From an uncultured virus (IMG/VR IMGVR_UViG_2061766007_000682) (Duplodnaviria > Heunggongvirae > Uroviricota > Caudoviricetes), in IMG/VR virus record IMGVR_UViG_2061766007_000682: a stretch of 64,000 nucleotides of DNA. One strand, 5' to 3'. This document shows, in pieces, positions 13,134 to 63,598 of this stretch. Numbering within the stretch: the first letter of the stretch is position 1; each line of letters opens with the position of its first letter. The position numbers were made by a program, and so were the translations under genes. Under the pieces are notes generated by a model. The model was not told the DNA's origin. It saw only the letters and a list, made by a program, of their open reading frames with translations, and ran no database searches.

Positions 13134-13522
13134 GCTTTATGGGCATTTACTTTTCTACAAGCGGTGATTGGAGTAAAACCGAAAAACTGCTTAAGCGAAC
13201 CGCAAAAGATAGTGTAGATTTGAATGTTCTTAGACAGTATGGCGAACTTGGTATACAAAGATTAGCGTATTACACACCTAAAGAAACAGGTGAAACCTCG
13301 GAATCTTGGTACTATGAGATTTCAAGAAATCAAAATAACAAGTATGTCATCACGTTTAAGAACCGAAATAGAGTGAATGGTGTCCCTATAGCCATCATTC
13401 TACAATATGGTCATGCCACAAGAAATGGAGGTTGGGTTGAAGGCCGTGATTATATTAATCCGGCTCTTCGCCCGATCTTTGATAATATGGCCGACAAAGT
13501 TTGGAAGGAGGCGATTAAGTGA
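13130..13522 (+). CDS. Neck/tail completion protein (HK97 gp10-like)
   Basis: TP..TG....SW, LQYGH, YI.PA motifs. Confidence 0.7.
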   Translation: MSFMGIYFSTSGDWSKTEKLLKRTAKDSVDLNVLRQYGELGIQRLAYYTPKETGETSESWYYEISRNQNNKYVITFKNRNRVNGVPIAIILQYGHATRNGGWVEGRDYINPALRPIFDNMADKVWKEAIK

Positions 13523-16500
13523 GTACTAGCATAGACGAACGTGTTGTGTATATGAAGTTTGATAATAAGAACTTTGAAAACAATGCTCAAGACTCTTTGA
13601 GAACACTTGATAAATTAAAAAGTAGTTTAGATTTTAAAGATGTTCAAAGTAAACTTAATAACGTCGATCTTTCTGGATTAAAAAGAAGTATGGGGTCGAT
13701 GTTTGATAACGTTGATACTTCAAAAATGGTATCCGCAATTGATAAACTCGAATATCGAATGTCAACCCTTGGCCAATTTACTGGAAGAATTGTTCAGAAT
13801 GTTGCCGATGATATTTATTCTGTAATTAAAAAAGCATTAGGCGGAATAGAAAAAGTAGTAACTTATGCTGAATCGGGTATAATTCAGGGTGGTTATACAA
13901 GAGCGAGTAATATTCAGTCTGCAAAGTTTAGTTTGGATGGTCTTGGTATCGCGTGGGATGAAATTTCCGGCGACATTGATTATGCAGTTAAAAATACTGC
14001 ATATTCTCTTGACCAAGCAGCGACAATAGCCGCACAATTAGCATCTGCCGGTGTTAGACCAGGAGAACAATATGTTACACTTGGTGGTGAATCACGAGAC
14101 ATAGATACAATGGCTATGATTCTTCGTTCTATTTCTGGTTCTGCATCAATGTCTGGTGGAACAGCTGATTATTCACAAATAGGTGCTATTTATACAAAAA
14201 TGCTTAGTTATGGAAAAGTATACATGACCGAGTTAAATTCTCTTGCTAATTTAACAAGAGTTGGTGTAAAAGCTACTATTGCTAAATATATGTCTGAAAT
14301 TGGTTATGAAGGTCGAAATGATTGGACAGAAGCAGATGTAATTGAAATGTCTCGTAGTGGCGATATTAATCCTATGTTAGTTATCGAAGCTATGTATGAG
14401 GAATTCGGTGAACAAGCTGTAAAGGCAAATTCTACTCTCGAAGGTGTTCTGGCTAATACAAGAGCTGCTTTAGCAAGAATAGGTGCCAATTTCTTTGAAC
14501 CAATTATTGAGAATAATGGTCCTCTTGTTCATGCTTTTGAGGTTTTAAGACAAAGCATTAATGATTTAAATACTGCAATTGGACCTGTAGTTAGTGCTTT
14601 TGGTAAAGATGTTGCCGGAGTAATTGGCAAATTTGCAGATAATTTTCTAGACAAAACTTTAATTGTCGATGAAGAAGGAAACGCTGTTTTAGATAGTAGT
14701 GGCAAAGAACAGTATACATATAGCCTTAAAAAGAAAGGTGGATTATTCTCTGACTTTGTTGAAGACTTATATGTTGGCGAATGGAAGGAAAAAGGAATAC
14801 CCGGACAAAGCGATCACACTTATGTTGACTTTGATGGTGAAGTAACAACAAGAGCTGCTATTATTGCTGAAAATCTTAGACTTTCTGCAATTAATACGAT
14901 GGAAACTTTAAGACTTATTGCTACAGCGATTGGTGATGCTTTTCATGCTGTATTTCCTAATGCAGATAGTTTCGCTGAAACACTTGTCAAAATCTCAGTT
15001 AAAATTAGAGAGATTACAGATGCGTGGAAGAACTCACCTTTCTTAAAAGACGGCGCTTATGAGAAGAGCGGACTGTTTAGAATACTTAGAGGTCTTGCTG
15101 CTGGTATTGATATTGTTATTCAATTCGGATCATCGTTTAAGAAACATATTATTGATCCTATTTTTAATAAAGGAAAAGAAGCGGCGGAGAAGTCTGGTTT
15201 AGGTGGATTCTTTTTAAAGTTCTTTGACTCGATTTACGAGTTTGATCAGAAAATAAAGAACTTTGACGGTGATTATTTTGGACCTTTCTTCGAAAAAACA
15301 AAAGTAATCTTTGGCAAAATAAGAGACGTTGTACAAAAAGGCTTTAAGTTTATAAGTGATAAGTTTGAAATAATAAAGCCAAAACTTGTTGCCTTCTTTG
15401 ATTTTATTAAGCCTAAGGTTAAATCTGCATTTGATAGTATTGTAAATTGGTGGAAACCAGTAAAAGATATTTTGGTTAATAGCGATCTTTCTATACAAGA
15501 GAAATGGGATGCTATTAAGAAATATTTTAAAGATAATTTTGAGATTCCTGGTATGGATAAGCTTAGAAGTCTTAGAGATTTCTTTAGTGAACATTTCGAT
15601 ATGCCAGGCTGGGATAATGTTAAGGATTTCTTTAGCACAATTGGTGACACAATTGGCAAAGGATGGGCAAAAGTTAAAGAGATATTTGGATTCGGTAAGA
15701 AAGAAGATGAAATTAGTTTAACTACTGCTGGTGCTGGACTATCTGGTAATAATGGATTATTTGGTAATGCTGGCAAAGTAGAAACTAATCTTACTATAAG
15801 TCAGGCATTAAATATGCTAGATAAAGACACAGAAAAGATGCCCACCATTATGGAAAGAATAAAGGGATTCTTTGATGGAATAAAGGAAGTATTTACAGAT
15901 TTCGATGTCGATGGTACAAAAGCCGTTTTACTCGGATTTGTAATAGTATTTGGTGTTGCATTTGTTACTATAACATCGTTTATTTATAAGATATTTAAAA
16001 CATTAACAACTGTTGTATTTAATCTTCCAAGATTAACTGAAAAATTGTTAACAAGTTTTAATGAACTGATAAATGGTATATCTGATACAATGCGTGCAAG
16101 TAGAGTAGAAATATATTCAGATGCATTGAAAAATATTGCTGAATCAATTGCTATTCTTGCATTAGTATTCCTAGCCATATCTGCTTTCATATTATTGGCA
16201 GACAAAATAGATCCAAGTGGAAATTATGTTGACAAGCTTATAACCGTCGGTGCCGTTATAGGTATTGTAACTACTGTTCTTGGTGTCATTATTGCTGCAC
16301 TTGCTGCGTATGCTGACACTATGAATAAAATAGTAACTATTACAAAAGCGGGACTAAATATAGTAACAGAAACAGCAGCTTTTGCTGGTATTGCTGCTGT
16401 AATAACAGCATTAGTTACAGGCATTGTTATTATATCCGGTGTTATATTTGCTTTGTCTTTTATGGATGAAAAAAAGTTTAAAGACGGATTAAAACGCTTA

Positions 16501-19500
16501 GCTATAGTTGCAGGGATATTATTTGGAATGACTGCTATTCTTATGGTTTTAGCAAGAATTGTCGGTGTATTTAAATCCATTAAAGGATTCCAAATGAATA
16601 ATGGATCGAAAGTAGCAAAATCGATGGCGGTTAATTTGCTTGGTATTGCATCTATTATTAATGCAATATCAATTGGCCTTGTAGTATTAACAGGCTTAAT
16701 TGCAGTATATGGATATCTATTTACAGATTCGAAGAAATTCTGGACTGGGGTCGGATATTTAGCTGTTGTTGGTGGTCTATTAGTAGCACTAGTGGCAGGT
16801 GTTCTGTATGTTATTCGTAGTGTAGAACGTATGGATATAAAACGAGAAATATCTGTTCCAAAATTAGTAGGTATATTTGCAGGAATGATTGCTATACTTG
16901 GCGCAATTGCGACAGGAATTGTATTCCTTTCTGGTATACTAATTATATTATCCAAAGTGGCAAGTTCTGACACGGGTGCATTCTGGTCTGGAATAGCGGC
17001 ATTGGTCGTCATTGGTGGTTTAATGGTTGCTATTCCTACATTGCTCATGAAATTTAATGCAACCGCTATGTATTCGGAAATTAATGCCGGTAACTTGTTT
17101 AAATTGGCTGGCAGTATTGCTGTACTATCAGTGGCGGCATTAATAATGGCTAAAGCTTTAAGCTTAGTTGCTAATTTGGATACTGAAGGAGTATTAGCTT
17201 CTGCCGCTGCTATAGGCGGTTTGATGCTCGCATGTATGTTACTTACCGGTATTATTATCGGCATATCTAATAGTGATAAAGATGCAGCTAAAACTGGGCT
17301 AGAAACAGTTCTCGCTATGTCACTTATGTTAGCAGCATTATATCCAGTTGCTTTAGCTATTGAGAGAATAGCTAATATGGAATTTGGAGATTATATTGCT
17401 GGAGTATTTGGTATAATTGGTGTACTGGGTGCAGTAGCATTAGTAGCATTAGCTCTTAATCGTTTTACTAAAGATGCCGATATAGACGGAAAGAAATTAA
17501 TAAATGTCGCAAGCACAATGACTATAATGGCTATTGCTTTAATCCCGATAGGAGCGGCTTTAGGATTATTATTTATGTCTCTTGATGGAAGAACTATAAA
17601 TAATGATAATCTTATTACGTCGCTGACCGGATTAGGAGTAATATTCTTTGTTATGGCTATGGTAACAAAGGGCTTGATTGATAGCATGCCTAAGGATCTT
17701 AATTACAAAGGACTATTATCTTCAATTGGTGGAGTAATGGGCTTATCTTTAGCGCTAATACCTATAATTGGAGCAGTAGCTTTGTTAATGTTAGTGATAA
17801 ATAGATCGCCTAATATTGATCCTTGGATGGTGCTTTCAATTTTAACTGGCATATCTTTAACCGTTGTAGCATTAGGAGCAGCGGCTATGTTTATCGCAGC
17901 CACAGCAACAAGACAGCTTACTGATACTAATTCTAAGGCGATGAATAAGCTTGGTAAAGTTATATTTACAATGCTTGCTGGTCTGATGGGCGTAGCAACA
18001 GTATTAAGTTTGTTTGTTTTAACAATGCATGCTTTCAATATTAATCCTGGAGAAATAGGATCAGCGACCTTATCTCTGGCAGCTCTTACTACATTAATAG
18101 TAGGTCTAGGTATGGCAGTTAGTGAAGTTGCGAATAATCAGAAAGTTAATTTGTTATCTGATGAAAAGTATGCTAATATGTTCAAATCCATAGGTATAGT
18201 TATTGCCAGTGTTCTTATAGCTGCGGCATCTATTTCACTAATTAACATGACTAGTGCTGGTGGATGGAGCACACTTCAAAATGTAGTTCCATTGATTCTT
18301 ACATTAGGTGCTGTTATAGGTGCTGTTGCTGGAATTCTTGCTATAGCAAATACTAAATTAATAAATGTTAATAGTTTGTCTAAATTGCCTGCGATGTTGA
18401 TATCTGTTGCAGTAGTGACTGGAGCTATGCTTATATTAGCTGGAGCTATAGTACTGCTTAATAGATTCGCACCCGATAATATTTGGAAATCATTTGGAGT
18501 TTTAGCTGCTTTGGCGGGGTTATTATTAGGTATGACTGCACTATTTGCCGTTATTTCTATGATACCGTTTAACCCGTTACAATTGTCAGCTTTAATAACT
18601 AATATGATACCTCCTGTAATATTAGTTGGCGCTTTAGCTGGAGTAGTTATATTATTAAATAGATTCACATCTGGTAGTATTTGGAGTACATTTGGCGTTG
18701 TTGCTGCTTTGGCTGGAACATTAACAGCCATGATTGCTCTATTAGCGACAATAAGTTTAATGCCATTTGATCCAGTTAAAATGAAATCATTAATTATCGG
18801 ATTAGTAGGATGCGTAGTGGCAATTGGCGGACTTGCTATAGCAATGAGATTGCTTTCAGATATGAGTTGGGAATCTATAGCCGGAAAATTAGCTGTATTC
18901 GTTATAGCTGTTTTAGCGTTAGCTGCTGGTATAGCCCTTCTCGGTAAAATACCTGGTGCTGATTTTGCATGGGCAAGCATGGGAACTATGTTAGTAGGCC
19001 TTGGTGTAACATTAGCTGGAGCTGGTGCTTTATTATATTTGAGTGCAAAAGCATTTAGCGATTTTACGGATGCATTGCTTAATATTAGCGGTAGAGATGA
19101 AGAATTAAAGAGTGGTATGTCAGCATGGACGTCGGCTATTGTTGCTGGATTTGTAACCGGTTTACATGAATTTAATGTACAATGGCCTAATATTCAGCAC
19201 GAAATAGATACGTTCTTAGAGACTATATTCCCATGGTTAGAAAATAAGCTCAGTCAATTGTTAGATCATTTAAAGACCCAAATTGGTACTATAATAGGCG
19301 CTTTGGCGGATCTTGTAGATGATCCTGAGATTCAGGAAGATCTCGCAAGCATAATCACTAATTTACTTGACTGGTTGGATGATCATGTTGAAGACTGGTC
19401 TGAAAAATTAGTAAGTATCGGTGCTAAGATATGTAAGGGTATCGCTAAGGGAATTGTTCATGCTTTGCCTATCGAATTAGCTAACTCGACTATTACAGAT

Positions 19501-21576
19501 ACTAATTACAGTATAGCATTCGCTGATAACCTGGATGAAATTTATGGACAACTCGAAAAAAGTTTGCATGAGTATTATCTTAAAGCGGGATACCTTGAAC
19601 AGGATTGGAATAAATTTGTAAGTAGTGCTAAATTCGAAGGTTTACAGGCATTGTTAGCTGACGCCATGGTATTTGGTGATCAGGATTCTATTGATTATTT
19701 GAATAGTATTGGTGGATACCAAAATGCTATAAATGCTGCTTTTTCTTCTATTGAAAAAGAAACCGGTGTCTATACCAAGAATGATCGACGACGTTATGAA
19801 GGTCTTTTCAATCCTGAAAATCAAAATAAACTTAAAATGCTATCTTCTTATGGATTCGATACAAGTGAGATTGAAAACATATTAAGTGGAATAGATATTG
19901 CTCTTTCTGCTGGTGGAGATTGGCAGAGTGGTATTACTGAATTAGAAGATTACTTAAGTTCATTATTAGAAACAATAGATGATCCTGAAACCAGATTGAA
20001 GTTTTTAATTGCCGCCCAAAACATGGGTCTTCAGTTACATATTGGATCGGAATTTGCTTACCCGGCTTGGCTTTCTGGGGCAGAAAATGCTAAGAGTAAA
20101 TACGGAAAAATATTTGGTAAAGATTCTGATAGAAAAGACATGTTTGATAATGGCCAAAGCTTTTTGAATGCGTATATAGAAGGAGCTAAAAAGGCACTTA
20201 ATTTAAAAGATTTAAATAGTTATGAAAATAGTATTCCTTATTTAATTGGACGAGCTACTGTTAAAGCACAACGTATTGGTATGCTGGAAGAAGAAGCTGC
20301 CCAAGGTGGTATAAAAGGCGCAGTAGCAGCATCGATGCTTGGAATAGCTCAAGCCGAATTAGATGGTATAATGAATGAAATAAAAGAAGCGTCTGCAGAA
20401 CAGGCATCTGAAGTTGCTGATACAACGACTGAGGCTATTGAAAAAGAACCAATAAATGCTAGTCCAACAGCAAATGTTGATCCGCAGATTAATGTAAATT
20501 ATACAGAAGAAGATGCAAATGGTGTCGCTAGTGAAATTGGTGGCACAACAGAGACAAGTCTTAGTAATGATTTTAGATCCAGAGCATGGGGCGATGTTGC
20601 TACAAATATTCTGGATGGTATCTTTAATAAGCTTAAAGATGATGAAGAATTACTTAAACGTGCCGAAGAAGCTGCAGAAAAAATGAGAGATAAGGTTGAT
20701 GAAGGCATAAGACATAAATTCCATATGCGTTCTCCTACGAGAGACCCTAAACTGTTAAAAGATGCTGATAATATAGGTTTAGGTATCTTTAATAGGATAC
20801 AAAGTATAACTCCAGGTCTTGCTGATGATACAGCTGGTGTAATGGAAGGAAGTCTCGAATCTAGTTTCGGAGACATTGCTGATAACATAGATTTTGAAGG
20901 ATTTGCTGGAGATATCATGGATAAGTTACGCAATCGTTTGCCTACTATGGAAGAACTTACATCTGGCTTTAGCTTAGACAAAGGACTTAGCGGTAATCTT
21001 GAAAATCTGAAAAATATTTTTGGTAAAATTAAAGACGCATTTAGTAATGTCGATTCGGATATTAGCTTACCAAACATCTTTGGTAGTCTTAAAGATCGTG
21101 TTCTTTCTGCTCTTGGTATCGATAGTAATAACGATCTTGGGCAAGCTATTACTGACGGATTAAGTAATGCACTCGGAATAGACCTTAATTCCATAATGGA
21201 TGGTTCTGCTCTGAGTTCTGATTTAAGTTTAGAAAGTCTTGGAGTAAATATAGATATGTCTGGTACAACCTTTGACCCAGATGCCAATGGTTTCGGCGGT
21301 TGGGATGCTAATGATTGGATGTCGAATAACACGATTGACATCGATACAAACATCGATTTGGATCAGCAAGTGTTGGACGATTTCTTAAATCAAAATACAA
21401 CCTTAGGGTTGGCAAATTCTGTTCCTGTCGCTGGAGGTTACAGACAGTCTACTATTGGATCAACGTATGTTAATAATTATAGTTACAATCAAACTAATAA
21501 CTCTCCTACAGCTCTTAATACAAGAGAGATTAATCGTCAGAATGAGCTTCTGCTTAATAGGCGTCGTAGGGGATGA
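13519..21576 (+). CDS. Tape measure protein
   Basis: 2685 aa, tape-measure N-terminal domain, long run of hydrophobic helical repeats, position before Dit. Confidence 0.95.
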   Translation: MSTSIDERVVYMKFDNKNFENNAQDSLRTLDKLKSSLDFKDVQSKLNNVDLSGLKRSMGSMFDNVDTSKMVSAIDKLEYRMSTLGQFTGRIVQNVADDIYSVIKKALGGIEKVVTYAESGIIQGGYTRASNIQSAKFSLDGLGIAWDEISGDIDYAVKNTAYSLDQAATIAAQLASAGVRPGEQYVTLGGESRDIDTMAMILRSISGSASMSGGTADYSQIGAIYTKMLSYGKVYMTELNSLANLTRVGVKATIAKYMSEIGYEGRNDWTEADVIEMSRSGDINPMLVIEAMYEEFGEQAVKANSTLEGVLANTRAALARIGANFFEPIIENNGPLVHAFEVLRQSINDLNTAIGPVVSAFGKDVAGVIGKFADNFLDKTLIVDEEGNAVLDSSGKEQYTYSLKKKGGLFSDFVEDLYVGEWKEKGIPGQSDHTYVDFDGEVTTRAAIIAENLRLSAINTMETLRLIATAIGDAFHAVFPNADSFAETLVKISVKIREITDAWKNSPFLKDGAYEKSGLFRILRGLAAGIDIVIQFGSSFKKHIIDPIFNKGKEAAEKSGLGGFFLKFFDSIYEFDQKIKNFDGDYFGPFFEKTKVIFGKIRDVVQKGFKFISDKFEIIKPKLVAFFDFIKPKVKSAFDSIVNWWKPVKDILVNSDLSIQEKWDAIKKYFKDNFEIPGMDKLRSLRDFFSEHFDMPGWDNVKDFFSTIGDTIGKGWAKVKEIFGFGKKEDEISLTTAGAGLSGNNGLFGNAGKVETNLTISQALNMLDKDTEKMPTIMERIKGFFDGIKEVFTDFDVDGTKAVLLGFVIVFGVAFVTITSFIYKIFKTLTTVVFNLPRLTEKLLTSFNELINGISDTMRASRVEIYSDALKNIAESIAILALVFLAISAFILLADKIDPSGNYVDKLITVGAVIGIVTTVLGVIIAALAAYADTMNKIVTITKAGLNIVTETAAFAGIAAVITALVTGIVIISGVIFALSFMDEKKFKDGLKRLAIVAGILFGMTAILMVLARIVGVFKSIKGFQMNNGSKVAKSMAVNLLGIASIINAISIGLVVLTGLIAVYGYLFTDSKKFWTGVGYLAVVGGLLVALVAGVLYVIRSVERMDIKREISVPKLVGIFAGMIAILGAIATGIVFLSGILIILSKVASSDTGAFWSGIAALVVIGGLMVAIPTLLMKFNATAMYSEINAGNLFKLAGSIAVLSVAALIMAKALSLVANLDTEGVLASAAAIGGLMLACMLLTGIIIGISNSDKDAAKTGLETVLAMSLMLAALYPVALAIERIANMEFGDYIAGVFGIIGVLGAVALVALALNRFTKDADIDGKKLINVASTMTIMAIALIPIGAALGLLFMSLDGRTINNDNLITSLTGLGVIFFVMAMVTKGLIDSMPKDLNYKGLLSSIGGVMGLSLALIPIIGAVALLMLVINRSPNIDPWMVLSILTGISLTVVALGAAAMFIAATATRQLTDTNSKAMNKLGKVIFTMLAGLMGVATVLSLFVLTMHAFNINPGEIGSATLSLAALTTLIVGLGMAVSEVANNQKVNLLSDEKYANMFKSIGIVIASVLIAAASISLINMTSAGGWSTLQNVVPLILTLGAVIGAVAGILAIANTKLINVNSLSKLPAMLISVAVVTGAMLILAGAIVLLNRFAPDNIWKSFGVLAALAGLLLGMTALFAVISMIPFNPLQLSALITNMIPPVILVGALAGVVILLNRFTSGSIWSTFGVVAALAGTLTAMIALLATISLMPFDPVKMKSLIIGLVGCVVAIGGLAIAMRLLSDMSWESIAGKLAVFVIAVLALAAGIALLGKIPGADFAWASMGTMLVGLGVTLAGAGALLYLSAKAFSDFTDALLNISGRDEELKSGMSAWTSAIVAGFVTGLHEFNVQWPNIQHEIDTFLETIFPWLENKLSQLLDHLKTQIGTIIGALADLVDDPEIQEDLASIITNLLDWLDDHVEDWSEKLVSIGAKICKGIAKGIVHALPIELANSTITDTNYSIAFADNLDEIYGQLEKSLHEYYLKAGYLEQDWNKFVSSAKFEGLQALLADAMVFGDQDSIDYLNSIGGYQNAINAAFSSIEKETGVYTKNDRRRYEGLFNPENQNKLKMLSSYGFDTSEIENILSGIDIALSAGGDWQSGITELEDYLSSLLETIDDPETRLKFLIAAQNMGLQLHIGSEFAYPAWLSGAENAKSKYGKIFGKDSDRKDMFDNGQSFLNAYIEGAKKALNLKDLNSYENSIPYLIGRATVKAQRIGMLEEEAAQGGIKGAVAASMLGIAQAELDGIMNEIKEASAEQASEVADTTTEAIEKEPINASPTANVDPQINVNYTEEDANGVASEIGGTTETSLSNDFRSRAWGDVATNILDGIFNKLKDDEELLKRAEEAAEKMRDKVDEGIRHKFHMRSPTRDPKLLKDADNIGLGIFNRIQSITPGLADDTAGVMEGSLESSFGDIADNIDFEGFAGDIMDKLRNRLPTMEELTSGFSLDKGLSGNLENLKNIFGKIKDAFSNVDSDISLPNIFGSLKDRVLSALGIDSNNDLGQAITDGLSNALGIDLNSIMDGSALSSDLSLESLGVNIDMSGTTFDPDANGFGGWDANDWMSNNTIDIDTNIDLDQQVLDDFLNQNTTLGLANSVPVAGGYRQSTIGSTYVNNYSYNQTNNSPTALNTREINRQNELLLNRRRRG

Positions 21577-32758: not shown

Positions 32759-33007
32759 ATGACAGACAATCAGAAAAAGTGGTTTAAAGCAGCTGGAATT
32801 CGTGCTCTCAAGACATTCCTGCAGGTAGCTGCCGGTTTCATCACCGTAGGAGCTGCTATCAGCGACATTAAATGGGGAGTGATGTTCTCTACCGCTTTCG
32901 TAGCAGGATTATATTCTCTCATTACAAGTGTAATCACAGGTCTTCCTGAAGCACCGGCAGGATTTAAAGAGGACGAGGATAATAACAATGGACCGACAGA
33001 TACCTAA
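32759..33007 (+). CDS. Holin (r1t-like)
   Basis: W.KAA.IRALKTF.Q, two TM segments, GLPE end. Confidence 0.8.
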   Translation: MTDNQKKWFKAAGIRALKTFLQVAAGFITVGAAISDIKWGVMFSTAFVAGLYSLITSVITGLPEAPAGFKEDEDNNNGPTDT

Positions 33008-33932
33008 TTGGTTAGCTCATCATGGTGTCCAGGGGCAAAAATGGGGGATCAAACATGGTCCTCCATACCCCATCGGTTCGCATCCTAGAAAAGTATTTGT
33101 ATCCGGAACATCTAAATTCAAAGGTAAGTTACCAAAAGAGATAACTAGTAAACTGGATAATTATATTCAGAATAACTACCACATATTAATCGGGGATGCA
33201 CCGGGTATTGATACTGAAGTCCAAAAATATCTGGCGAAGAAAAATCATAGAAATGTTACAATTTATACGATTGAGAACGAACCTAGATTTCAAGCTACGA
33301 ACGATTTAGGTTGGGGAGTTAAGAAAGTCGAGGCTCCTGAATCGGAGATCGTAGACGGGTATAATCCTGCTCAGGTCTATAAGGACAAAGCTATGGCTAA
33401 GGATGCACATATTGGATTGGCAATCCCTATTGAAAACGGTGCTAAAGCTACACGTAAAAATATTGAAAGATTAGAGGGATCCGGCAAGTCGGTAGATGTT
33501 ATCGAACTTGGTACGGACGGGTATAACTCCGAGCAAAAGAACGTTAATTCTTGGGGCAAATCTAAAGACAATAACATATTATATATTTCCGGTAAAGCAG
33601 GAAGTGGAAAATCTTCTAAAGCCTTATCCATGTCTAATAATGTTATACATTTGGATTTCTATTTCGAGCCAGGTTATGAGAAGTATCAGTCTAAGGATTT
33701 CAACAAATATCTTAAACAGCACTTTCCCAATTACAAAGACTTATTAAATAAGGATAAGAACTTTGGAAAGAATCTTGAGAAGTTTGAAAACGTTATTCAA
33801 GATTATGGTAAGTATGCTTTTAACAATGGCGAATCTGTCGTGGTAGAAGGTTTACAGTTACTTGATGGAACTTTATTTCCAGATAGTAATTATTTCAACG
33901 ATAAACCTTATATTTTAATGACAAAAGAATAA
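32988..33932 (+). CDS. LxH(H/Y)G-tag protein 7 with SLOG-like and P-loop kinase-like domains
   Basis: WLAHHGVQGQKWG; VFVSG...IGDAPGID...KD.AM...T..NI (SLOG-like); ISGKAGSGKS Walker A, VVVEG. Confidence 0.75.
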   Translation: MDRQIPNWLAHHGVQGQKWGIKHGPPYPIGSHPRKVFVSGTSKFKGKLPKEITSKLDNYIQNNYHILIGDAPGIDTEVQKYLAKKNHRNVTIYTIENEPRFQATNDLGWGVKKVEAPESEIVDGYNPAQVYKDKAMAKDAHIGLAIPIENGAKATRKNIERLEGSGKSVDVIELGTDGYNSEQKNVNSWGKSKDNNILYISGKAGSGKSSKALSMSNNVIHLDFYFEPGYEKYQSKDFNKYLKQHFPNYKDLLNKDKNFGKNLEKFENVIQDYGKYAFNNGESVVVEGLQLLDGTLFPDSNYFNDKPYILMTKE

Positions 33933-33968
33933 AGGCATCGGATGAAAATCTGGTGTCTTTATTTTTTT
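33931..33968 (+). terminator. Terminator at end of the late region
   Basis: AAAGGCATCGGAT / ATCTGGTGTCTTT stem plus T-run. Confidence 0.8.
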
Positions 33969-33996
33969 CGCGTGGAAAACTGATGGTATTATAGAA
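33967..33996 (+). promoter_or_regulatory. TTCGCR-N17-TATRRAA element (first of the array)
   Basis: Same motif at 34201, 34416, 34773, 35353, 35623, 36063, 36672, 37382, 37564, 37902; gap-truncated at 35057 and 35738. Confidence 0.85.
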
Positions 33997-34019
33997 GAAC
34001 AATAATTGGAGGTGATCTT

Positions 34020-34181
34020 ATGACAAAATTAGAGAGATTGATGATCAGACTTGAAGGGATAGCTAAAAATACAGCTTTCTCTGAGAGATCAGGAATCAGC
34101 TATGATAAAGAAGGAACAAAGGAAGAACTGGAAAACATTATTGGAAAAATCTACGAAGAACTGGATAAGGTAGCGGAGTAA
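34020..34181 (+). CDS. Cassette microprotein (53 aa, helical), ends KVAE
   Basis: RBS GGAGGTGAT; stop codon lies in the loop of the downstream hairpin. Confidence 0.75.
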   Translation: MTKLERLMIRLEGIAKNTAFSERSGISYDKEGTKEELENIIGKIYEELDKVAE

Positions 34182-34242
34182 TATCTGCTCCTTATCTTTT
34201 TTCGCATTATATTCTAACCTTAATATGAAAGGAGGTGATAAC

Positions 34243-34398
34243 ATGAGAACATGCTCGAATTGCAAGTATTCTAAGGTGAATCACGAAGCAGATACTTTTT
34301 ACTGTAAAGTACACTGCGACGATACACCTAAGGAATACGGGGAGAACATGTACTGCGATTATCACGTGTTTAAACCAAGAAGAGAAGGCGCAGAGTAA
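34243..34398 (+). CDS. Cassette microprotein (51 aa, Cys/His-rich), ends EGAE
   Basis: RBS AAAGGAGGTGAT; C..C.Y...C...C..H pattern. Confidence 0.75.
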   Translation: MRTCSNCKYSKVNHEADTFYCKVHCDDTPKEYGENMYCDYHVFKPRREGAE

Positions 34399-34455
34399 TC
34401 TGCCCTTCTTATTTTTTCGCATTATATTCTGTCTCCTATATAGGAGGTGATAAGT

Positions 34456-34731
34456 ATGAACGAATTTGAAAATAAAGTAATAAATGGTATATTTGTTTCA
34501 CAATATGTAGCCGCATGGGTTAAAGAGTGTGGTGGATGTGAATATCATTACATCAAAAAAGATGGAAAGATAGAACGTGTTTGGCCGTTTAGAAAATGGT
34601 TAGAACAGCTTCTTATCAATGGAAGACATCTTACCGATGATGAGGTGAGATTCATAACCAACTTTGCAACTAACGGCAAATTGGAGTTGGAGGCAAATGC
34701 ACGACATTTTAATTCAGAAACAGAACCTTAA
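34456..34731 (+). CDS. Cassette protein, copy 1 of a duplicated gene
   Basis: FENK.INGI..SQYVAAW...NGKLELE; paralogue at 36347. Confidence 0.85.
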   Translation: MNEFENKVINGIFVSQYVAAWVKECGGCEYHYIKKDGKIERVWPFRKWLEQLLINGRHLTDDEVRFITNFATNGKLELEANARHFNSETEP

Positions 34732-34734
34732 GAT

Positions 34735-34774
34735 TAAGGAGGTTACGGACGAAAGTCCGGCCTCTTTATTTTTT
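34735..34774 (+). terminator. Type B hairpin GGAC-GAAA-GTCC
   Basis: Near-identical copy at 36635-36673; related hairpin at 54480. Confidence 0.8.
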
Positions 34775-34822
34775 CGCGCCAACTCCCGGGATCTATATAG
34801 AACATATAAGGAGGATAAAACT

Positions 34823-35017
34823 ATGAAAAAGGTTTATATTGTTACTTACAACAGAGTCGATGCTAAGGGCGTCGTAATCCTGAATGAGATTTGGCATGTT
34901 TCGTCAAGTCTTGGAAGAGCTAAGTGCTGGTGTTGGGATCACCGGCATGTAGAATATATCAACAAGAACGAGAGCGCCAAACTCATCATTGAGGAAGTCG
35001 AAGTCGACGATGAGTGA
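34823..35017 (+). CDS. Cassette microprotein (64 aa)
   Basis: RBS AAGGAGG; MKKVYIV...SS...A...IEEVEVD small phage beta-alpha-beta pattern. Confidence 0.75.
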   Translation: MKKVYIVTYNRVDAKGVVILNEIWHVSSSLGRAKCWCWDHRHVEYINKNESAKLIIEEVEVDDE

Positions 35018-35022
35018 GAGCA

Positions 35023-35058
35023 ATAAGGACGCAGAGTAATCTGCTCCTTATATTTTTT
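35023..35058 (+). terminator. Type A hairpin TAAGGA-C-GCAGA-GTAA-TCTGC-TCCTTA
   Basis: Identical core at 36247, 36861 and 37532; variants at 34165 and 34384. Confidence 0.85.
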
Positions 35059-35112
35059 CGCNNNNNNNNNNNNNNNNNNNNNTATAAAAATAATTTTTAG
35101 GAGGAAACAACT

Positions 35113-35274
35113 ATGAAAAACGAAATGGAAATGAAAAAGGATATGGTAACTCGGCTTAACAAGACCATTGAGGGACTGGAGAACCAGAAACTCAATGCGA
35201 AAAATGCTGAGGAATGGCAATTCCTTGACAAATTGGAACGTAGTTTTCAGGAAGAACTAGATGCAGTAACATAA
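35113..35274 (+). CDS. Cassette microprotein (53 aa, coiled)
   Basis: RBS AGGAGG; MKNEMEMKKDMVTRL...DAVT. Confidence 0.7.
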   Translation: MKNEMEMKKDMVTRLNKTIEGLENQKLNAKNAEEWQFLDKLERSFQEELDAVT

Positions 35275-35402
35275 AGGAATTATTATTCAATGATACGGAG
35301 CGTTAACAGCGCTCTTTATCTTTTTCGTTTACAAATCTATCTATTATATTTTTTCGCGCCAAAAACACACCTCCATATAGAACAACAAAGGAGGACAAAA
35401 CT

Positions 35403-35579
35403 ATGAAAAGAGCAATGTTAATTAAGTTGGTAGTTGGATGTATCATTCTTACATCTGGTTGTGGAGGAGACAAAACTGAAACAACTAAGAAGAAAGAAGA
35501 TAGACTTCCAAATGCCACTTATTGGGAAGATGTCTTGGTAGAAGAAACCTTAGTTGAAGAAACAATTATCGGGTGGTGA
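35403..35579 (+). CDS. Cassette lipoprotein-like microprotein (58 aa)
   Basis: MKR, hydrophobic stretch, lipobox-like LTSG-C; stop TGA lies inside the downstream hairpin. Confidence 0.7.
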   Translation: MKRAMLIKLVVGCIILTSGCGGDKTETTKKKEDRLPNATYWEDVLVEETLVEETIIGW

Positions 35580-35604
35580 AATATCCACCCTTTAATTTTT
35601 TTTT
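35571..35604 (+). terminator. Type C hairpin GGGTGG-TGAAATAT-CCACCC
   Basis: Identical copy at 37354-37383. Confidence 0.8.
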
Positions 35605-35649
35605 GCCGACAAACCTGGCACGGACGCGTTATATTCTGCTACTAATATG

Positions 35650-35730
35650 AAAGGATAATATTAGCTCAGTAGGGAGAGCACCGATCTAACAAATTGGAGG
35701 TCCTGGGTTCGATCCCCAGATTTATCCTTT
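35650..35730 (+). tRNA. tRNA-like RNA, anticodon AAC (Val), atypical acceptor stem
   Basis: D arm GCTC/GAGC, anticodon stem CCGAT/ATTGG with loop CTAACAA, T arm CTGGG-TTCGATC-CCCAG; acceptor stem extended and bulged, no CCA. Confidence 0.75.
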
Positions 35731-35794
35731 ATATTTTTTCGCGTAGAAAACGGTTCTNNNNNNNNNNNNNNNNNNNNNNNNNNNNNNNNNNATT

Positions 35795-36009
35795 ATGGGT
35801 TTTATTAACAAAATTTGGAATACAAAGTGTATGAGATGCGACGAAGAATTTCCTAAAACTCAGGCGCATTCTGTAGTAGTAGATACTAAACAGTATCTGC
35901 TATGCAAGAAATGTGCTTGGGATGTGGAAGTCCTGTTGCATTGTTCGCCACTTCCAAAATTCGGAGATGAAGGCGACATGAAAGTCATTCCATCAGAGAA
36001 TTCAAAAGA
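35795..36009 (+). CDS. Cassette zinc-finger-like protein (3' end in gap)
   Basis: CMRC...LCKKC. Confidence 0.6.
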
Positions 36010-36106
36010 NNNNNNNNNNNNNNAAATTAGAGATCGGACAAAAGTCTGGTCTTCTAATTTTTTTCGCATTATATTCTGTTATCAATATGAAAGGATGGTG
36101 ATAAAA

Positions 36107-36262
36107 ATGTTATGGTTGTTATTAGCATTTATAGTATGCCTTATACTCAGTATATCGAGTGAATATACATTCTTTATTGTATTGGGTATTGGTATAGGGT
36201 TGCTTATAGACTACATACCATTTGCAATAGCAATACTTTTGGAACGTAAGGACGCAGAGTAA
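36107..36262 (+). CDS. Cassette membrane microprotein (51 aa, 2 TM), ends KDAE
   Basis: RBS AAAGGATGGTGAT; hydrophobic; stop in hairpin loop. Confidence 0.75.
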   Translation: MLWLLLAFIVCLILSISSEYTFFIVLGIGIGLLIDYIPFAIAILLERKDAE

Positions 36263-36346
36263 TCTGCTCCTTATTTTTTTTTTTTTTNNNNNNNNNNNNN
36301 NNNNNNNNNNNNNNNNNNNNNNNNNNNNNNNNNNNNGGAATGTAAA

Positions 36347-36631
36347 ATGGACGAATTTGAGAACAAAGTTATAAATGGAATATTTACCTCACAGTATGTA
36401 GCCGCGTGGGTTAAAGAGCGTGGTGAATGCGGATATCATTACATCAAGAAAGATGGAAAGATAGAGCGTGTTTGGCCGTTTAAAAAATGGTTAGAACAGC
36501 TTCTTATCAATGGAAGGCATCTTACTGATGATGAAGTCCGATTCATTACGAACTTTGCCACTAACGGTAAACTAGAACTGCAGGCAAATGCACAACATTT
36601 TAGTTTTAATGACGAAATGGTAGAACCTTAG
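36347..36631 (+). CDS. Cassette protein, copy 2 of a duplicated gene
   Basis: Highly similar to 34456-34731. Confidence 0.85.
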   Translation: MDEFENKVINGIFTSQYVAAWVKERGECGYHYIKKDGKIERVWPFKKWLEQLLINGRHLTDDEVRFITNFATNGKLELQANAQHFSFNDEMVEP

Positions 36632-36715
36632 GGTTAAGGAGGTACGGATGAAAGTCCGGCCTCTTTATTTTTTCGCATCAGAATCATATCTCTATATGAA
36701 AGGATGGTGATTTAC

Positions 36716-36877
36716 ATGCTTATGTTTATTGGACTAATTGTACTGGTTTCAAAGTTATGTATAGCCCTTAACATACAAACAGAATATGTGATAGGGATTA
36801 TATGGGGGCTTGGAATCATGGAAGCTATAAACATGCATAGACTTGTTTTATACATGAAGTATAAGGACGCAGAGTAA
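36716..36877 (+). CDS. Cassette membrane microprotein (53 aa, 2 TM), ends KDAE
   Basis: RBS AAAGGATGGTGAT; MLMFIGLIVLV...YKDAE. Confidence 0.75.
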   Translation: MLMFIGLIVLVSKLCIALNIQTEYVIGIIWGLGIMEAINMHRLVLYMKYKDAE

Positions 36878-37187
36878 TCTGCTCCTTATTTTTTTTTTTT
36901 TNNNNNNNNNNNNNNNNNNNNNNNNNNNNNNNNNNNNNNNNNNNNNNNNNNNNNTAAACTGTAAACATCGTGATGAGTGTTGCTATAGAGGAGGCTATAG
37001 TGATCATAATTCATGGATGAGTTTACATGGCGGTATGAACCCGTATTCTGATCGTTGNNNNNNNNNNNNNNNNNNNNNNNNNNNNNNNNNNNNNNNNNNN
37101 NNNNNNNNNNNNNNNNNNNNNNNNNNNNNNNNNNNNNNNNNNNNNNNNNNNNNNNNNNNNNNNNNNNNNNNNNNNNNNNNNNNNNNN

Positions 37188-37346
37188 AAAAGGTTGTGGC
37201 TTACAGGTGTCATCATTCCCGTAGCAGGGATGTGTGTGACATTGTATGCTCACGTGCCGGAAGTACGAAGGGCTGTCAACGATATGCCTCACAATATCAA
37301 GAAGAGGGTGGCTCATCTTAAGAACCGCTTTCACAGAAAGGAGTGA
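37188..37346 (+). CDS. Cassette protein, 3' part (start in gap)
   Basis: Hydrophobic segment then basic tail; followed by type C hairpin. Confidence 0.5.
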   Translation, partial: KRLWLTGVIIPVAGMCVTLYAHVPEVRRAVNDMPHNIKKRVAHLKNRFHRKE

Positions 37347-37425
37347 AGTATCTGGGTGGTGAAATATCCACCCTTTAATTTTTCGCATTATATTCTGTCC
37401 TTTAGATGAAAGGATGGTGATTTAT

Positions 37426-37545
37426 ATGACTGGAATGAGAGATAGTATGAATGACTGTGATTTGAAAAGTAGTTACGAATGCTATTCTGGAATGAGAGAT
37501 AGTATGAATGATGACGACATTAAAGAATGTGAGGACGCAGAGTAA
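37426..37545 (+). CDS. Cassette microprotein (39 aa) with internal duplication, ends EDAE
   Basis: RBS AAAGGATGGTGAT; GMRDSMND occurs twice. Confidence 0.65.
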   Translation: MTGMRDSMNDCDLKSSYECYSGMRDSMNDDDIKECEDAE

Positions 37546-37630
37546 TCTGCTCCTTATATTTTTTTCGCGTCAGAATCGTACCTCTATATAGAACTGTAAG
37601 ATCTATATAACTTTTAAGGAGGAACTTATT

Positions 37631-37848
37631 ATGGCAAGTTTTAAAGAATCTTTTAAAAACGGTATGGCGAAGCAGGGCGGAGAAATGGCAGCAAGCGTTG
37701 TCCTTTCAGCAGCANNNNNNNNNNNNNNNNNNNNNNNNNNNNNNNNNNNNNNNNNNNNNNNNNNNNNNGAACTGATGAAACAACGCCGACACAGGAATCG
37801 GTAGAACTTCCAAAAGAGATCAAAGAAGAACAGACAAAAGAGCCGTGA
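37631..37848 (+). CDS. Cassette protein, paralogue of 37971-38195 (central gap)
   Basis: Shared leader and C-terminal ELPKE..KEE..KEP. Confidence 0.65.
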
Positions 37849-37970
37849 GACTCTATAAACTTCACATGAANNNNNNNNNNAGTCTCCTAATCTTTTTTAA
37901 ATTCGCGTGAAAAACGTATCTCTATATAGAACTGTAAGATCTATATACAAAAATTTAGGAGGAACTTATT

Positions 37971-38195
37971 ATGGCAAAAGTAACAGAAGACATGAAGAAC
38001 TTTGCAGCTTATGGCGTAGCTGCTGGACTTGCACTTGGCCTGACGGTTGGAGTGACCCACTTGGTCGCAAAAGCTGGAAGCGCTATTGCAAACAAGCACA
38101 CTGCTAAAAAGGCGGCAAAACTGGAAGAAAAGAAGAAGCCCGTAGTAACGGAGCTTCCAAAAGAAGTAGTAAAGGAAGAACAGAAAGAGCCGTGA
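37971..38195 (+). CDS. Cassette single-TM protein with charged tail
   Basis: RBS AGGAGG; Ala/Gly-rich hydrophobic helix. Confidence 0.75.
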   Translation: MAKVTEDMKNFAAYGVAAGLALGLTVGVTHLVAKAGSAIANKHTAKKAAKLEEKKKPVVTELPKEVVKEEQKEP

Positions 38196-38215
38196 GACTC
38201 TCAATTTCTCACAGG

Positions 38216-38256
38216 AAAGGAGATTGGATGAAAAATCTGATCTCCTGATCTTTTTT
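38216..38256 (+). terminator. Type D hairpin AGGAGATT.GA / TC...TCTCCT
   Basis: Related hairpins at 42641 and 45539, partial at 37881. Confidence 0.75.
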
Positions 38257-38285
38257 GCCTAATTATATTTAAGGAGGTGATTGAT

Positions 38286-38396
38286 ATGGCAGATTGTAAA
38301 TCTTGTAGGCATCATACGATATGCAATATTATATTTAAAAGTAAAAAGAATCCTTTTTGTAAGCAGGAGGTAAACAACCATGTCACATACAGTTAA
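38286..38396 (+). CDS. Small Cys-rich protein (36 aa)
   Basis: RBS AAGGAGGTGAT; CKSC....C....C. Confidence 0.5.
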   Translation: MADCKSCRHHTICNIIFKSKKNPFCKQEVNNHVTYS

Positions 38397-38558
38397 TACA
38401 GCAGTAGCAAAAAGATGCATATGTGGAAGCATTCCTGTAGTAAAACCTGCTTCAAATGAAGGCGTCGCATGTATAGTAGAATGCATGTTTTGCGACGTGG
38501 ATAGTGTAATCGGATCTAATAGGCATAACGCAATTCAGGTATGGAATGAAATGATAGA
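38380..38558 (+). CDS. Lar-like zinc-ribbon protein (3' end in gap)
   Basis: CICG..P...C..C...AI..WN. Confidence 0.55.
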
Positions 38559-42373: not shown

Positions 42374-42403
42374 TTCGCGCGAAAATATGGTCCTCTTATA
42401 GAT
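42374..42403 (+). promoter_or_regulatory. TTCGCG-N17-TATAGAT element
   Basis: Same spacing as array elements; heads a solitary cassette. Confidence 0.75.
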
Positions 42404-57449: not shown

Positions 57450-57652
57450 AAATTCAATTTAAAAATGTCAAATTTTGTTGATATTTAGGCCGTTTACGGG
57501 CTTAATTTGTTGACAAACCTGGCACGAACGGCGAAAAAATGTCAAATTTTAAGTCAAAATATGTCAAAAATCTTTGATATTTTTGATAAAATTGTTGAAA
57601 AAACATGAAAAATTCATCAAAATTTGCACAAAATTGCACAAAACTGTTTTTA
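57450..57652. other. Putative replication origin region
   Basis: Non-coding, AT-rich, repeated (AT)GTCAAA and TTGA(C/T)A elements, upstream of the helicase-primase. Confidence 0.5.
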
Positions 57653-58065
57653 ANNNNNNNNNNNNNNNNNNNNNNNNNNNNNNNNNNNNNNNNNNNNNNN
57701 NNNNNNNNNNNNNNNNNNNNNNNNNNNNNNNNNNNNNNNNNNNNNNNNNNNNNNNNNNNNNNNNNNNNNNNNNNNNNNNNNNNNNNNNNNNNNNNNNNNN
57801 NNNNNNNNNNNNNNNNNNNNNNNNNNNNNNNNNNNNNNNNNNNNNNNNNNNNNNNNNNNNNNNNNNNNNNNNNNNNNNNNNNNNNNNNNNNNNNNNNNNN
57901 NNNNNNNNNNNNNNNNNNNNNNNNNNNNNNNNNNNNNNNNNNNNNNNNNNNNNNNNNNNNNNNNNNNNNNNNNNNNNNNNNNNNNNNNNNNNNNNNNNNN
58001 NNNNNNNNNNNNNNNNNNNNNNNNNNNNNNNNNNNNNNNNNNNNNNNNNNNNNNNNNNNNNNNNC

Positions 58066-59738
58066 TCCAAAGATTTGATGGTAAAAGGTTCTAAGTTCTA
58101 TGCTATATGGGATGAAGAAGCCGGATTATGGTCTACAGATTTATATGACGTTCAAAGATTAATTGATAAAGAACTCGATGACTATGTAGCCAAGAATAAT
58201 TTTGACACTAGAGTCAAGATTAGATATCTGGCTTCTTTCTCTTCACAGATTTGGACTACGTTCTTGAAGTATGTAGCTTCATGTCCTGACAATTATAAAT
58301 TGCTGGATAGAACAATTACGTTTGCTGATACACCAGTTAAGAAGAGCGATTATATTTCTAGGAAGCTTCCATATACTTTGAATGATATACCAACTCCAGC
58401 GTATGATGAATTAACAAATTCATTATATTCTCCTGATCAGAAAGAAAAGTTTGAATGGGTGATTGGATCGATAATAGCTGGCGATTCAAGAAAGATTCAA
58501 AAGTTTCTTGTGTTTTATGGAAAACCTGGAACTGGTAAAAGTACAATTCTTAATATTATACAGAAATTATTTGAAGGATACTTTAATTCATTCAATTCAA
58601 AAGCATTAGGAAATTCCAATTCTGAATTTTCAATAGAACCTTTTAGATTAAATCCACTAATTGCTATTGAACATGAAGGTGATCTATCGCATATTGAAGA
58701 TAACACGAGATTAAATAGCATAACGAGCCATGAACCGATAACTGTAAACTTAAAGCATAAATCTATGTACACTGATACATTTACGTCAATGTGTATTATT
58801 GGTACTAATAAACCTGTAAAGATTACAGATTCAAAGTCTGGTATTATTCGAAGACTAATTGATGTAAATCCTAAAGGTATTATTATTCCTGAAAAGAGAT
58901 ACGACGCATTATATCATCAAATAGATTTTGAGTTAGGTGGAATCGCAAAACATTGTTTGGATGTCTATACTTCACTTGGTAAAAATTATTACAAAGATTA
59001 CAAGCCGATTGCAATGATGCAGAAAACTGATGTATTCTTCAATTATATTCAAGAGTATTACAATGAGTATGCAGATGCAAATGAAGTAACATTGAAAAAA
59101 GCTTGGATGAATTATTTGGAATTTTGTAATAATACTAATATTAAGTATGACATGCCTCAGTATAAGTTCAGAGAAGAATTAAAAGAATATTTTGATGAAT
59201 TCCTTGAACAAACTACTATGGGAAATGGAATGCGAGTACGTAGTTTATATAGAGGTTTTAAGAAAGAGAAAATTTATTTAGAAGTAACAAAGCCTGAAAA
59301 AGATAAAACTAAAAAGAACGAGGCTAAGCCATGGGCATTTAATTTAAATAGCACAAAGTCATTGTTAGACAAAGCATTGGCTGACTGTCCTGCACAATAT
59401 GCAAAAGAAGATGGAACACCTGTGACAACTTGGAGTCGTAATATGTATATATTAAAAGACATCGACACAAAAGAGTTGCATTATGTGAAACCGCCTCTTA
59501 ATCATATTGTTATTGACTTTGACTTGAAGAACTCTAATGGCGAAAAAGATTTCNNNNNNNNNNNNNNNNNNNNNNNNNNNNNNNNNNNNNNNNNNNNNNN
59601 NNNNNNNNNNNNNNNNNNCATCTTCATTATATTTATCAAGGAGACCCAGAAATGCTGGCATCTGTCTATGATACAAATATTGAAGTAAAAGTATTTAAAG
59701 GTCGTTCATCTTTGAGGCGTAAACTTACTAAATGTAAT
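58066..59738 (+). CDS. SF3 (D5-like) helicase plus primase-like domain (5' end in gap)
   Basis: Walker A GKPGTGKS, GTNK, RRL; HIVIDFD and, after a gap, HLHY AEP-like motifs. Confidence 0.8.
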
Positions 59739-63577: not shown

Positions 63578-63598
63578 AAATCTAACTATATTATAGAA
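63569..63598 (+). promoter_or_regulatory. TTCGCG-N17-TATAGAA element
   Basis: Overlaps helicase stop; same spacing as array elements. Confidence 0.75.

Follow-up and report, generated by a model that had tools for sequence, protein, structure and literature searches.

The window analysed here is a 64,000-nucleotide (nt) stretch of an uncultured virus (IMG/VR record IMGVR_UViG_2061766007_000682), and from 33.93 to about 38.3 kb it carries an array of about 15 one-gene units in which every small gene is enclosed by the same kind of intergenic cassette. Each cassette runs, in order, through a terminator hairpin, a T-run, a box of the form TTCGCR-N17-TATRRA, an extended Shine-Dalgarno (SD) sequence and an ATG, and the hairpins fall into type A, type B (with a GAAA loop), type C and other classes. 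Five open reading frames (ORFs) on the + strand, F1 to F5, read into type A hairpins and take their last residues from them. F1 (34020..34181; 53 amino acids (aa), helical) ends in KVAE and has its stop in the loop of a diverged type A copy, F2 (34243..34398; 51 aa, Cys-rich) ends in EGAE, F3 (36107..36262; 51 aa, hydrophobic) and F4 (36716..36877; 53 aa, hydrophobic) both end in KDAE, and F5 (37426..37545; 39 aa, acidic) ends in EDAE, the last four with their stops in type A loops. Coordinates and tails agree with a preliminary description of the region, as does the size class of four of the five (51–53 aa), and folding placed a TAA in the hairpin loop of all five, as that description had proposed, with a T-run after the hairpin. 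The common ending GAC GCA GAG TAA that it gave is exact in three of the five ORFs, with GGC GCA GAG TAA in F2 and GTA GCG GAG TAA in F1.

The type A hairpin has a 12-bp stem with one bulged base and a GUAA tetraloop followed by a T-run, and its six copies in the window have folding energies of −15.0 to −19.3 kcal/mol. Canonical copies lie on the + strand at 35023..35051, where the upstream ORF does not use the loop stop, at 36246..36274 (−15.4 kcal/mol), at 36861..36889 (−15.0 kcal/mol) and at 37529..37557 (−19.3 kcal/mol), where the stem can be extended to 37525-37561. On the same strand, folding and covariation identified a variant with a compensatory lower stem, GAAGG/CCTTC, at 34382..34410, and the copy behind F1 (34163..34197; repeat family D3) is diverged, with a shifted bulge, a loop longer by 2 nt, an energy of −19.0 kcal/mol and a T-run after it. 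The 14-nt core of the element occurs in five exact copies on the + strand, and allowing up to two mismatches gives 11 matches against 0.33 expected. More broadly, terminator-like sites number 32 between 30 and 48 kb, compared with 8.0 ± 3.0 in shuffled sequence. The hairpins of the array are G+C-containing stem-loops directly before a U-tract on the coding strand and so qualify, by computation, as intrinsic terminators, and their stability, T-runs and covariation likewise describe stem-loops predicted to terminate transcription.

The box that follows the T-run is confined to this strand and, for the most part, to this region. TTCGCR-N17-TATRRA is matched 10 times in the window, where 0.11 would be expected, and always on the + strand; eight of these matches fall in the array (33967..37930), starting at 33967, 34201, 34773, 35353, 36063, 36672, 37564 and 37902, and each of these eight exact copies lies directly after a terminator T-run, so that the T-run always stands upstream of the box. 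Near-copies are found at 34416 and 37382, and the sequence TTTTCGC occurs 11 times on the + strand, always within 33965-37562. Exact copies of the full box outside the array lie at 42374-42402 and 63569-63597, both on the + strand. The preliminary description had recognised a leader, ATGAAAGGA(T)GGTGAT-N3-5-ATG, ahead of four of the five ORFs (34243, 36107, 36716 and 37426), and this leader is indeed present; it is the end of the promoter-like −10 box fused to the SD sequence. In the copy at 36087..36109 (+ strand), for instance, the tail of a −10-like box (TATGAA) is joined to the extended SD and the ATG, and further copies on the + strand lie at 34225, 36696 and 37406, with one at 35647 that runs into a tRNA. 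We rejected ATGAAAGGATGGTGA as a four-codon mini-ORF (MKGW), as its ATG is part of the −10-like box and it lacks an SD of its own, and as in the copy at 34225 the frame continues into the gene. From conservation and position, we infer that the cassettes have promoter and terminator activity.

Type A hairpins and the placement of stop codons

A metagenome scan with the type A hairpin pattern returned 11 loci, of which only two, L002 and L003, proved to be relatives, and together with the window these supplied 12 type A copies for the analysis of covariation and stop placement. Across the 12 copies, 97.2% of the cells pair, compared with 39–58% in slid controls, and four stem pairs have changed on both sides, all of these double changes coming from a single variant lineage (GAAGG/CCTTC). 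The upper stem, together with the first base of the loop, encodes the two tail residues that never vary, A and E. The residue at position −3 (D, G or V) tracks the stem variant with its compensatory changes, also inside single ORF families, and this pattern speaks for selection on the hairpin as RNA and against selection for a peptide tag. Tails switch within the families of F1 (KVAE/KDAE), F5 (EDAE/KDAE) and F2 with a 60-aa ORF of L003 (EGAE/KDAE), and the comparisons point to hairpins that may be exchanged or converted independently of the ORF body.

The upstream ORF stops at the loop TAA in 11 of the 12 type A copies. A second stop stands at the stem base in another frame in 10 of 12, and the third frame runs on for 25–67 nt. 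The exception in the window is a 64-aa ORF (34823..35017, + strand) with a TGA of its own, placed 7 nt ahead of the stem of the copy at 35023-35051, which follows it in another frame. Late stops are also seen at other hairpin classes: at type B hairpins they fall 0–8 nt before the stem in seven of eight evaluated junctions, and a 58-aa lipoprotein-like ORF (35403..35579, + strand) has its TGA in the loop of the type C hairpin at 35571-35590 (+ strand), as had been noted in the preliminary description. Its homologue in L003 also ends in W, with a different terminator 8 nt past the stop.

As a rough control for the reading frame, we used the nine non-relative loci of the metagenome scan, two of which (L005 and L008) are one sequence, giving eight contexts, and added L012 and L013 for a total of 10; the latter two come from a pattern scan of genome contigs and had been rejected as relatives, being unrelated terminators. 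The loop-TAA frame is open for at least 25 codons in four of the 10 (L006, 75 codons; L010, 44; L009, 40; L007, 33), and among these four only L006 has the lower stem and a terminator-like tail; the control is too small and mixed to carry weight. L006 is of interest in itself: at 1900-1960 this unrelated metagenome contig has the same hairpin core, with a 75-codon frame that ends at the loop TAA (tail ...EKGAE) and with an SD and an ATG directly after the hairpin. The same stop-in-loop arrangement may accordingly occur in other phages.

Small genes and exchange of units between relatives

To compare the ORF bodies, nine proteins (36 pairs) were trimmed of their first residue and last five residues and aligned pairwise against 2000 shuffles. 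F3 and F4 remain similar after trimming (z 6.0; 1 of 2000 shuffles attains the score) and are diverged paralogues. The only other pair to stand out is F2 with the 60-aa Cys-rich ORF of L003 (L003-4827), which ends in KDAE and shows weak similarity (z 3.8; 3 of 2000 shuffles); the next best pairs were matched by 58–59 of 2000 shuffles, all counts being uncorrected for multiple tests. By this measure, the five tailed ORFs form four unrelated groups in the window, and not five as first described, with L002 adding a fifth group in the form of a 74-aa membrane ORF that ends in EGAE.

Orthologues of F2 and F3 in L002 are 88% and 96% identical, respectively, and a homologue of F1 in L003 has 51% identity and also ends in KVAE. 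Divergence from L002 is patchy, with 3 differences per 153 nt in F3 against 23 per 153 nt in F2. The ratio of nonsynonymous to synonymous substitution (dN/dS) is 0.045 for F2 (window against L002), 0.20 for F1 (window against L003) and 0.07–0.10 for a 94-aa gene family of the array. Because the small ORFs have homologues in relatives and dN/dS values of 0.045–0.20, they are real genes under purifying selection rather than random peptides, and the proposal that the cassettes turn randomised DNA into peptides is not supported. A search of 5.8 billion proteins with F2, F1 and F5 gave two, two and one homologues: P0001 and P0002 (F2) end in EGAE, P0003 and P0004 (F1) in KDAE, and P0005 (F5; 80% identity) in KDAE. 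Homologues free of the DAE ending, for which the preliminary description had suggested a search, are not among these database matches, all of which keep a hairpin-type tail; the tail itself does differ within families. Within F5, a 25-nt sequence is directly repeated without a mismatch (37430-37454 and 37487-37511); the two copies are spaced 57 nt apart in the same frame, which yields the peptide GMRDSMND twice, and P0005 carries the same repeat. Across 22 small proteins, Pfam gave one match below the cut-off and PHROGs gave matches of unknown function only. For F3, a phmmer search of 1.84 billion representatives found no credible relative; its match to a 1358-aa protein (12 short stretches, E 1e-5) was regarded as compositional.

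Searches of phage and viral collections yielded no relatives. A megablast of 33000-38500 against 50,697 phage records and a tblastn of the 94-aa protein against phage records gave no match, and no relatives were found among IMG/VR viral contigs scanned with three DNA patterns and two protein-based scans. L002 (3662 bp) is 79–98% identical to the window where the two align, and L003 is 10.3 kb of a 75-kb contig in which an upstream 314-aa gene is 94.5% identical and only the cassettes and three ORF families are shared beyond it. The cassette motifs of the window recur in both. The clearest difference concerns F5, whose interior (37430-37536) is replaced in L002 by an unrelated 212 nt at the site of the 74-aa membrane ORF, which is about twice as long as F5, with a left flank that is 89% identical to one base past the ATG and a right flank that is 80% identical from the upper stem on. 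At the position of the window's 94-aa gene (34456-34731), L002 carries an 80-aa ORF; the units at 34779-35061 and 36723-36954, the former that of ORF 34823 and the latter that of F4, have no counterpart in L002, and L002 1216-1474 has none in the window. Homology between the window and L002 ends at a start codon or leader and resumes at a hairpin or promoter, and insertions, deletions and replacements that separate the window from L002 and L003 end in cassettes.

We also mapped de Bruijn contigs from three other animal-gut samples to the region at 85% likeness, and found 12 joints. In seven of the 12, each end falls in a cassette, at the start of an ORF or at a terminator, and four are ambiguous. 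Examples of the seven are 34423>34781, 36057>34197 (the unit after 36057 goes on at 34197), 35602>34418 and 35058>35333, the last with 299 other letters between, and they include a 357-nt promoter-to-promoter deletion of the first 94-aa unit. The joint 34700>36621, seen in two runs, connects the two 94-aa paralogues, and the relatives that have it may carry a single copy of that gene. Together with the F5 replacement in L002 and the unit insertions and deletions, the reordered units in the three samples bear out the earlier proposal that constant flanks provide the expression signals and the interior varies. One contig of 1491 nt, from run X3, has both of its ends within the tRNA gene (its start near 35699, its end near 35678) and has a permuted unit order (34197-36057), with a zinc-ribbon ORF, F2, ORF 34823, another ORF and the lipoprotein ORF in succession; duplication of the tRNA, an effect of assembly and a circular form are all conceivable explanations.

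Other elements of the array and the phage that carries it

The type B terminator at 34735..34768 (+ strand) has a GAAA loop, an SD-like 5′ arm and a TAA at its base, and a second + strand copy of the same repeat family (D4) lies at 36635-36667; hairpin folding and repeat comparison identified + strand variants at 33930-33961 and 36026-36058. In the two D4 copies the 5′ arm is a near-perfect SD sequence (AAGGAGGT) with a stop codon at the base, and the 3′ arms of type A and type B hairpins resemble the anti-SD end of 16S rRNA. The second type C copy (37354..37373, + strand; repeat family D20) is preceded by an ORF that stops 7 nt before the hairpin. The 91/94-aa ORFan gene is present in two copies (34456-34731 and 36347-36631; family D2) with 87% nt identity and a dN/dS of 0.10, each with a type A hairpin before it and a type B hairpin after it. 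The paralogous ORFs at 37631-37849 and 37971-38195 (about 70 aa; repeat families D8, D12 and D15) both end in ...KEP and have near-identical promoters and similar terminators, and they represent a further tandem duplication of a whole unit.

One cassette slot holds a tRNA-Val gene with anticodon AAC (35653..35728, + strand), which starts just after a −10-like box and was the sole Rfam match above threshold in the region. The anticodon is unusual, the gene encodes no CCA, and its 3′ end is directly followed by a T-run and a TTCGCG box, a layout that looks as if the tRNA's own stems stood in for the terminator hairpin. The same gene is present in L002.

All long ORFs of the window lie on the + strand. 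Among the large ones, PHROGs names a large terminase, a portal, a head protease, a major tail protein (phrog_2645), an endolysin-domain tail protein, a DNA polymerase or primase and a helicase. Because its PHROGs-named virion genes match siphovirus-type families, we take the window to be a tailed-phage genome of siphovirus-like build. The block of tail genes includes a 2685-aa ORF (13519-21576). Ribosome-binding sites fit the extended Gram-positive SD sequence AAAGGAGGTGAT. The large terminase subunit is only about 70% identical to those of uncultured faecal phages and Streptomyces phages, and therefore does not place the host. Outside the array, two consecutive ORFs (57574-59688 and 59776-60936) with N runs nearby both match the DNA polymerase family phrog_4210, covering profile positions 28–537 and 620–956, respectively, and may represent a split or interrupted gene.

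Interpretation and comparison with known systems

We consider it probable that this part of the window is a hyperplastic array of small genes in a Firmicutes-type siphophage, composed of one-gene transcription units whose cassettes are like the PeSL (promoter-early stem-loop) cassettes of T4-type phages, with the stop codons pushed into the terminator. This reading builds on the anatomy, the hairpin covariation, the gene-content differences with their breakpoints in the flanks and the purifying selection observed here. Each cassette would begin at a gene's stop codon, end at the start codon of the gene after it and combine an intrinsic terminator, a T-run, a promoter-like box and an extended SD sequence. 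Stops would sit as far 3′ as the hairpin allows, which is the loop in type A (TAA in GUAA), the stem base in type B and the loop in one type C copy, and the tail K/E-D/G/V-A-E would be the translated 5′ arm of the type A terminator, a by-product of the overlap between gene end and terminator and no peptide tag. Recombination between cassettes, made possible by their repetition and similarity, would insert, delete, replace and reorder whole ORF units, and it would also homogenise the hairpins, as has been described for PeSL cassettes. Recombination as the process behind these differences, and early expression of the units, are what we infer from the observed pattern.

Several points weigh against this reading. 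The box fits the sigma-70 consensus at only 4 of 6 and 4 of 6 positions and was missed by a generic promoter scan, so that a phage-specific or alternative sigma factor, or another role for the box, is possible. A single RNA run (X20) gave three small contigs (one of 166 nt on ORF 34823), by which transcription is not demonstrated. There are only two assembled relatives, and de Bruijn contigs can be chimeric at just such repeats, which makes the joints supporting rather than decisive. The window has 39 N runs, several of them in the region of interest, and several junctions are unreadable because they fall in N runs. Finally, the in-frame bias that the preliminary description had expected across relatives is borne out by the count of copies, yet it is modest once paralogy and orthology are removed, with five families in the loop frame against one (by our own arithmetic, P = 0.018 with three equally likely frames and 0.11 when viability is restricted to the two frames that contain a stop). 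We regard the bias as real, yet not as strong evidence for anything beyond a stop placed as late as the hairpin permits.

The same features can be read in other ways. The preliminary description had raised the idea of a shared C-terminal tag. On that reading [KE][DGV]AE would be functional, for instance as a degron or as a signal for sorting or for binding a partner, appended by the cassette to whichever ORF it encloses, and this would account for the tail frame being read at 11 of 12 type A hairpins and for the invariance of A and E in all 11 tails and the five database homologues. The RNA constraint explains these two residues, however, through the invariant upper stem and first loop base, and the three alternatives at residue −3, D, G and V, differ in their chemistry and track stem variants. 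With tails that differ within one ORF family, one ORF that has the same hairpin out of frame and hence no tail, other terminator types that yield other ends (GW or none), and tailed proteins whose types (membrane, Cys-rich, helical, acidic) are united by no theme, we find a tag very improbable. A common origin of all five ORFs, as diverged paralogues of one ancestral microgene of which only the RNA-constrained ends are still recognisable, likewise strikes us as very improbable. The paralogy of F3 and F4, the segmental duplication evident in the 94-aa genes and the similar length of four of the five ORFs are in its favour, but only 2 of 36 trimmed pairs stand out, F3/F4 being the sole pair among the five ORFs to do so, composition class differs among the ORFs, and an unrelated ORF of twice the length occupies the same socket in L002.

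Two further alternatives give the position of the stop a function. A ribosome at a loop stop would cover the 3′ arm of the hairpin, and by melting the hairpin it could let translation control read-through or the stability of the mRNA 3′ end. The stop inside the hairpin fits this proposal, as does the expectation, in the available part of PMC7858274, that a ribosome close behind RNA polymerase would mask so near a terminator. The same source takes terminators near stops in Firmicutes as a sign that ribosomes lag, so that no coupling would be expected, and type B and other terminators of the array keep the stop outside the stem; we consider such regulation quite unlikely. Somewhat broader is the idea that the cassettes are a generic expression socket, with the stop built into the terminator, in which new microproteins are trialled and in which termination or mRNA decay depends on translation. 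If so, any in-frame insert between leader and hairpin would be transcribed, translated and terminated at once, and F5, with its 25-nt internal duplication and its replacement in L002, would be an example of such turnover. This, too, we hold to be unlikely, and we favour the array of PeSL-like units set out above.

In the available parts of two papers on T4-type phages (Arbiol et al. 2010, PMC2839356; Comeau et al. 2014, PMC4122927), PeSL cassettes comprise an upstream stop codon, an AT-rich region, a promoter, a stem-loop, an SD sequence and a start codon; they flank ORFans in hyperplastic regions, and recombination gives insertions, deletions and replacements. The array resembles that partial account in three ways: a promoter is paired with a stem-loop terminator, the pairs cluster in a variable region of small genes beside ORFans, a setting borne out by the Pfam, PHROGs and 5.8 billion-protein searches, and ORFs are inserted, deleted or replaced at the cassettes when close relatives are compared. 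For the excised mini-circles of PeSL systems, which carry one ORF and a chimeric cassette, the 1491-nt contig of run X3 is the sole hint in the present data. It differs in several respects, again as far as those parts of the papers describe PeSL. The carrier has siphovirus-type virion genes rather than being a T4-type myovirus, and the array has Gram-positive-type signals (extended SD AAAGGAGGTGAT) beside siphovirus-like virion modules. The order is invariably hairpin and then promoter, the hairpin has the canonical terminator form followed by its T-run, and the promoter-like box fits the sigma-70 consensus poorly. PeSL stop codons stand in the AT-rich region before the promoter and not in a loop (PMC2839356, PMC4122927, same portions), whereas the array hairpin reaches 12–16 nt into the coding sequence and encodes the last four residues and the stop.

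Overlap of this kind has a milder counterpart in Firmicutes. In B. subtilis, terminators are reported to lie typically a few nt after stop codons, which is read as a sign of uncoupled transcription and translation (Johnson 2020, as cited in the available part of PMC7858274). The array is like these stop-adjacent terminators of 'runaway' transcription in having the hairpin at or within a few nt of the stop, and by that partial account it is unlike them in the 12–16 nt of overlap, the stop in the loop and the use of the same hairpin for several genes. The host-takeover module of Bacillus phage SPO1 is another cluster of small genes, expressed early and rich in strong promoters, strong ribosome-binding sites (RBSs) and terminators, and the array resembles it in these features; we know of no repeated stop-containing hairpin in that module. 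Like integron cassettes, the units have a single ORF bounded by repeated hairpin-forming sites (attC in integrons) and vary between relatives. Unlike attC sites, the array hairpins are RNA terminators with T-runs on the coding strand and each unit has its own promoter, and unit exchange in the array presumably proceeds by homologous recombination. A non-exhaustive PHROGs scan of 16 large ORFs showed no integrase, and no attI was found. Full-text literature searches gave nothing on point, among the matches listed, for a stop inside a phage terminator loop or for such cassettes in Firmicutes siphoviruses.

The element of the array appears to work like PeSL while standing outside the described PeSL set, and it is not new in kind, PeSL-like cassettes with terminator-embedded stops being a variation. 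The idea of regulatory cassettes that double as recombination sites would thereby extend beyond T4-type myoviruses of Gram-negative hosts to a gut or rumen phage with Gram-positive-type signals. The extreme overlap of gene end and terminator leaves its mark on proteins, giving unrelated microproteins the same last residues; for annotation, this means that common endings of this kind may stem from the RNA and need not be motifs. As a natural collection of terminator, promoter and RBS parts in little space, the array also lends itself to the study of how phage ORFan genes turn over.

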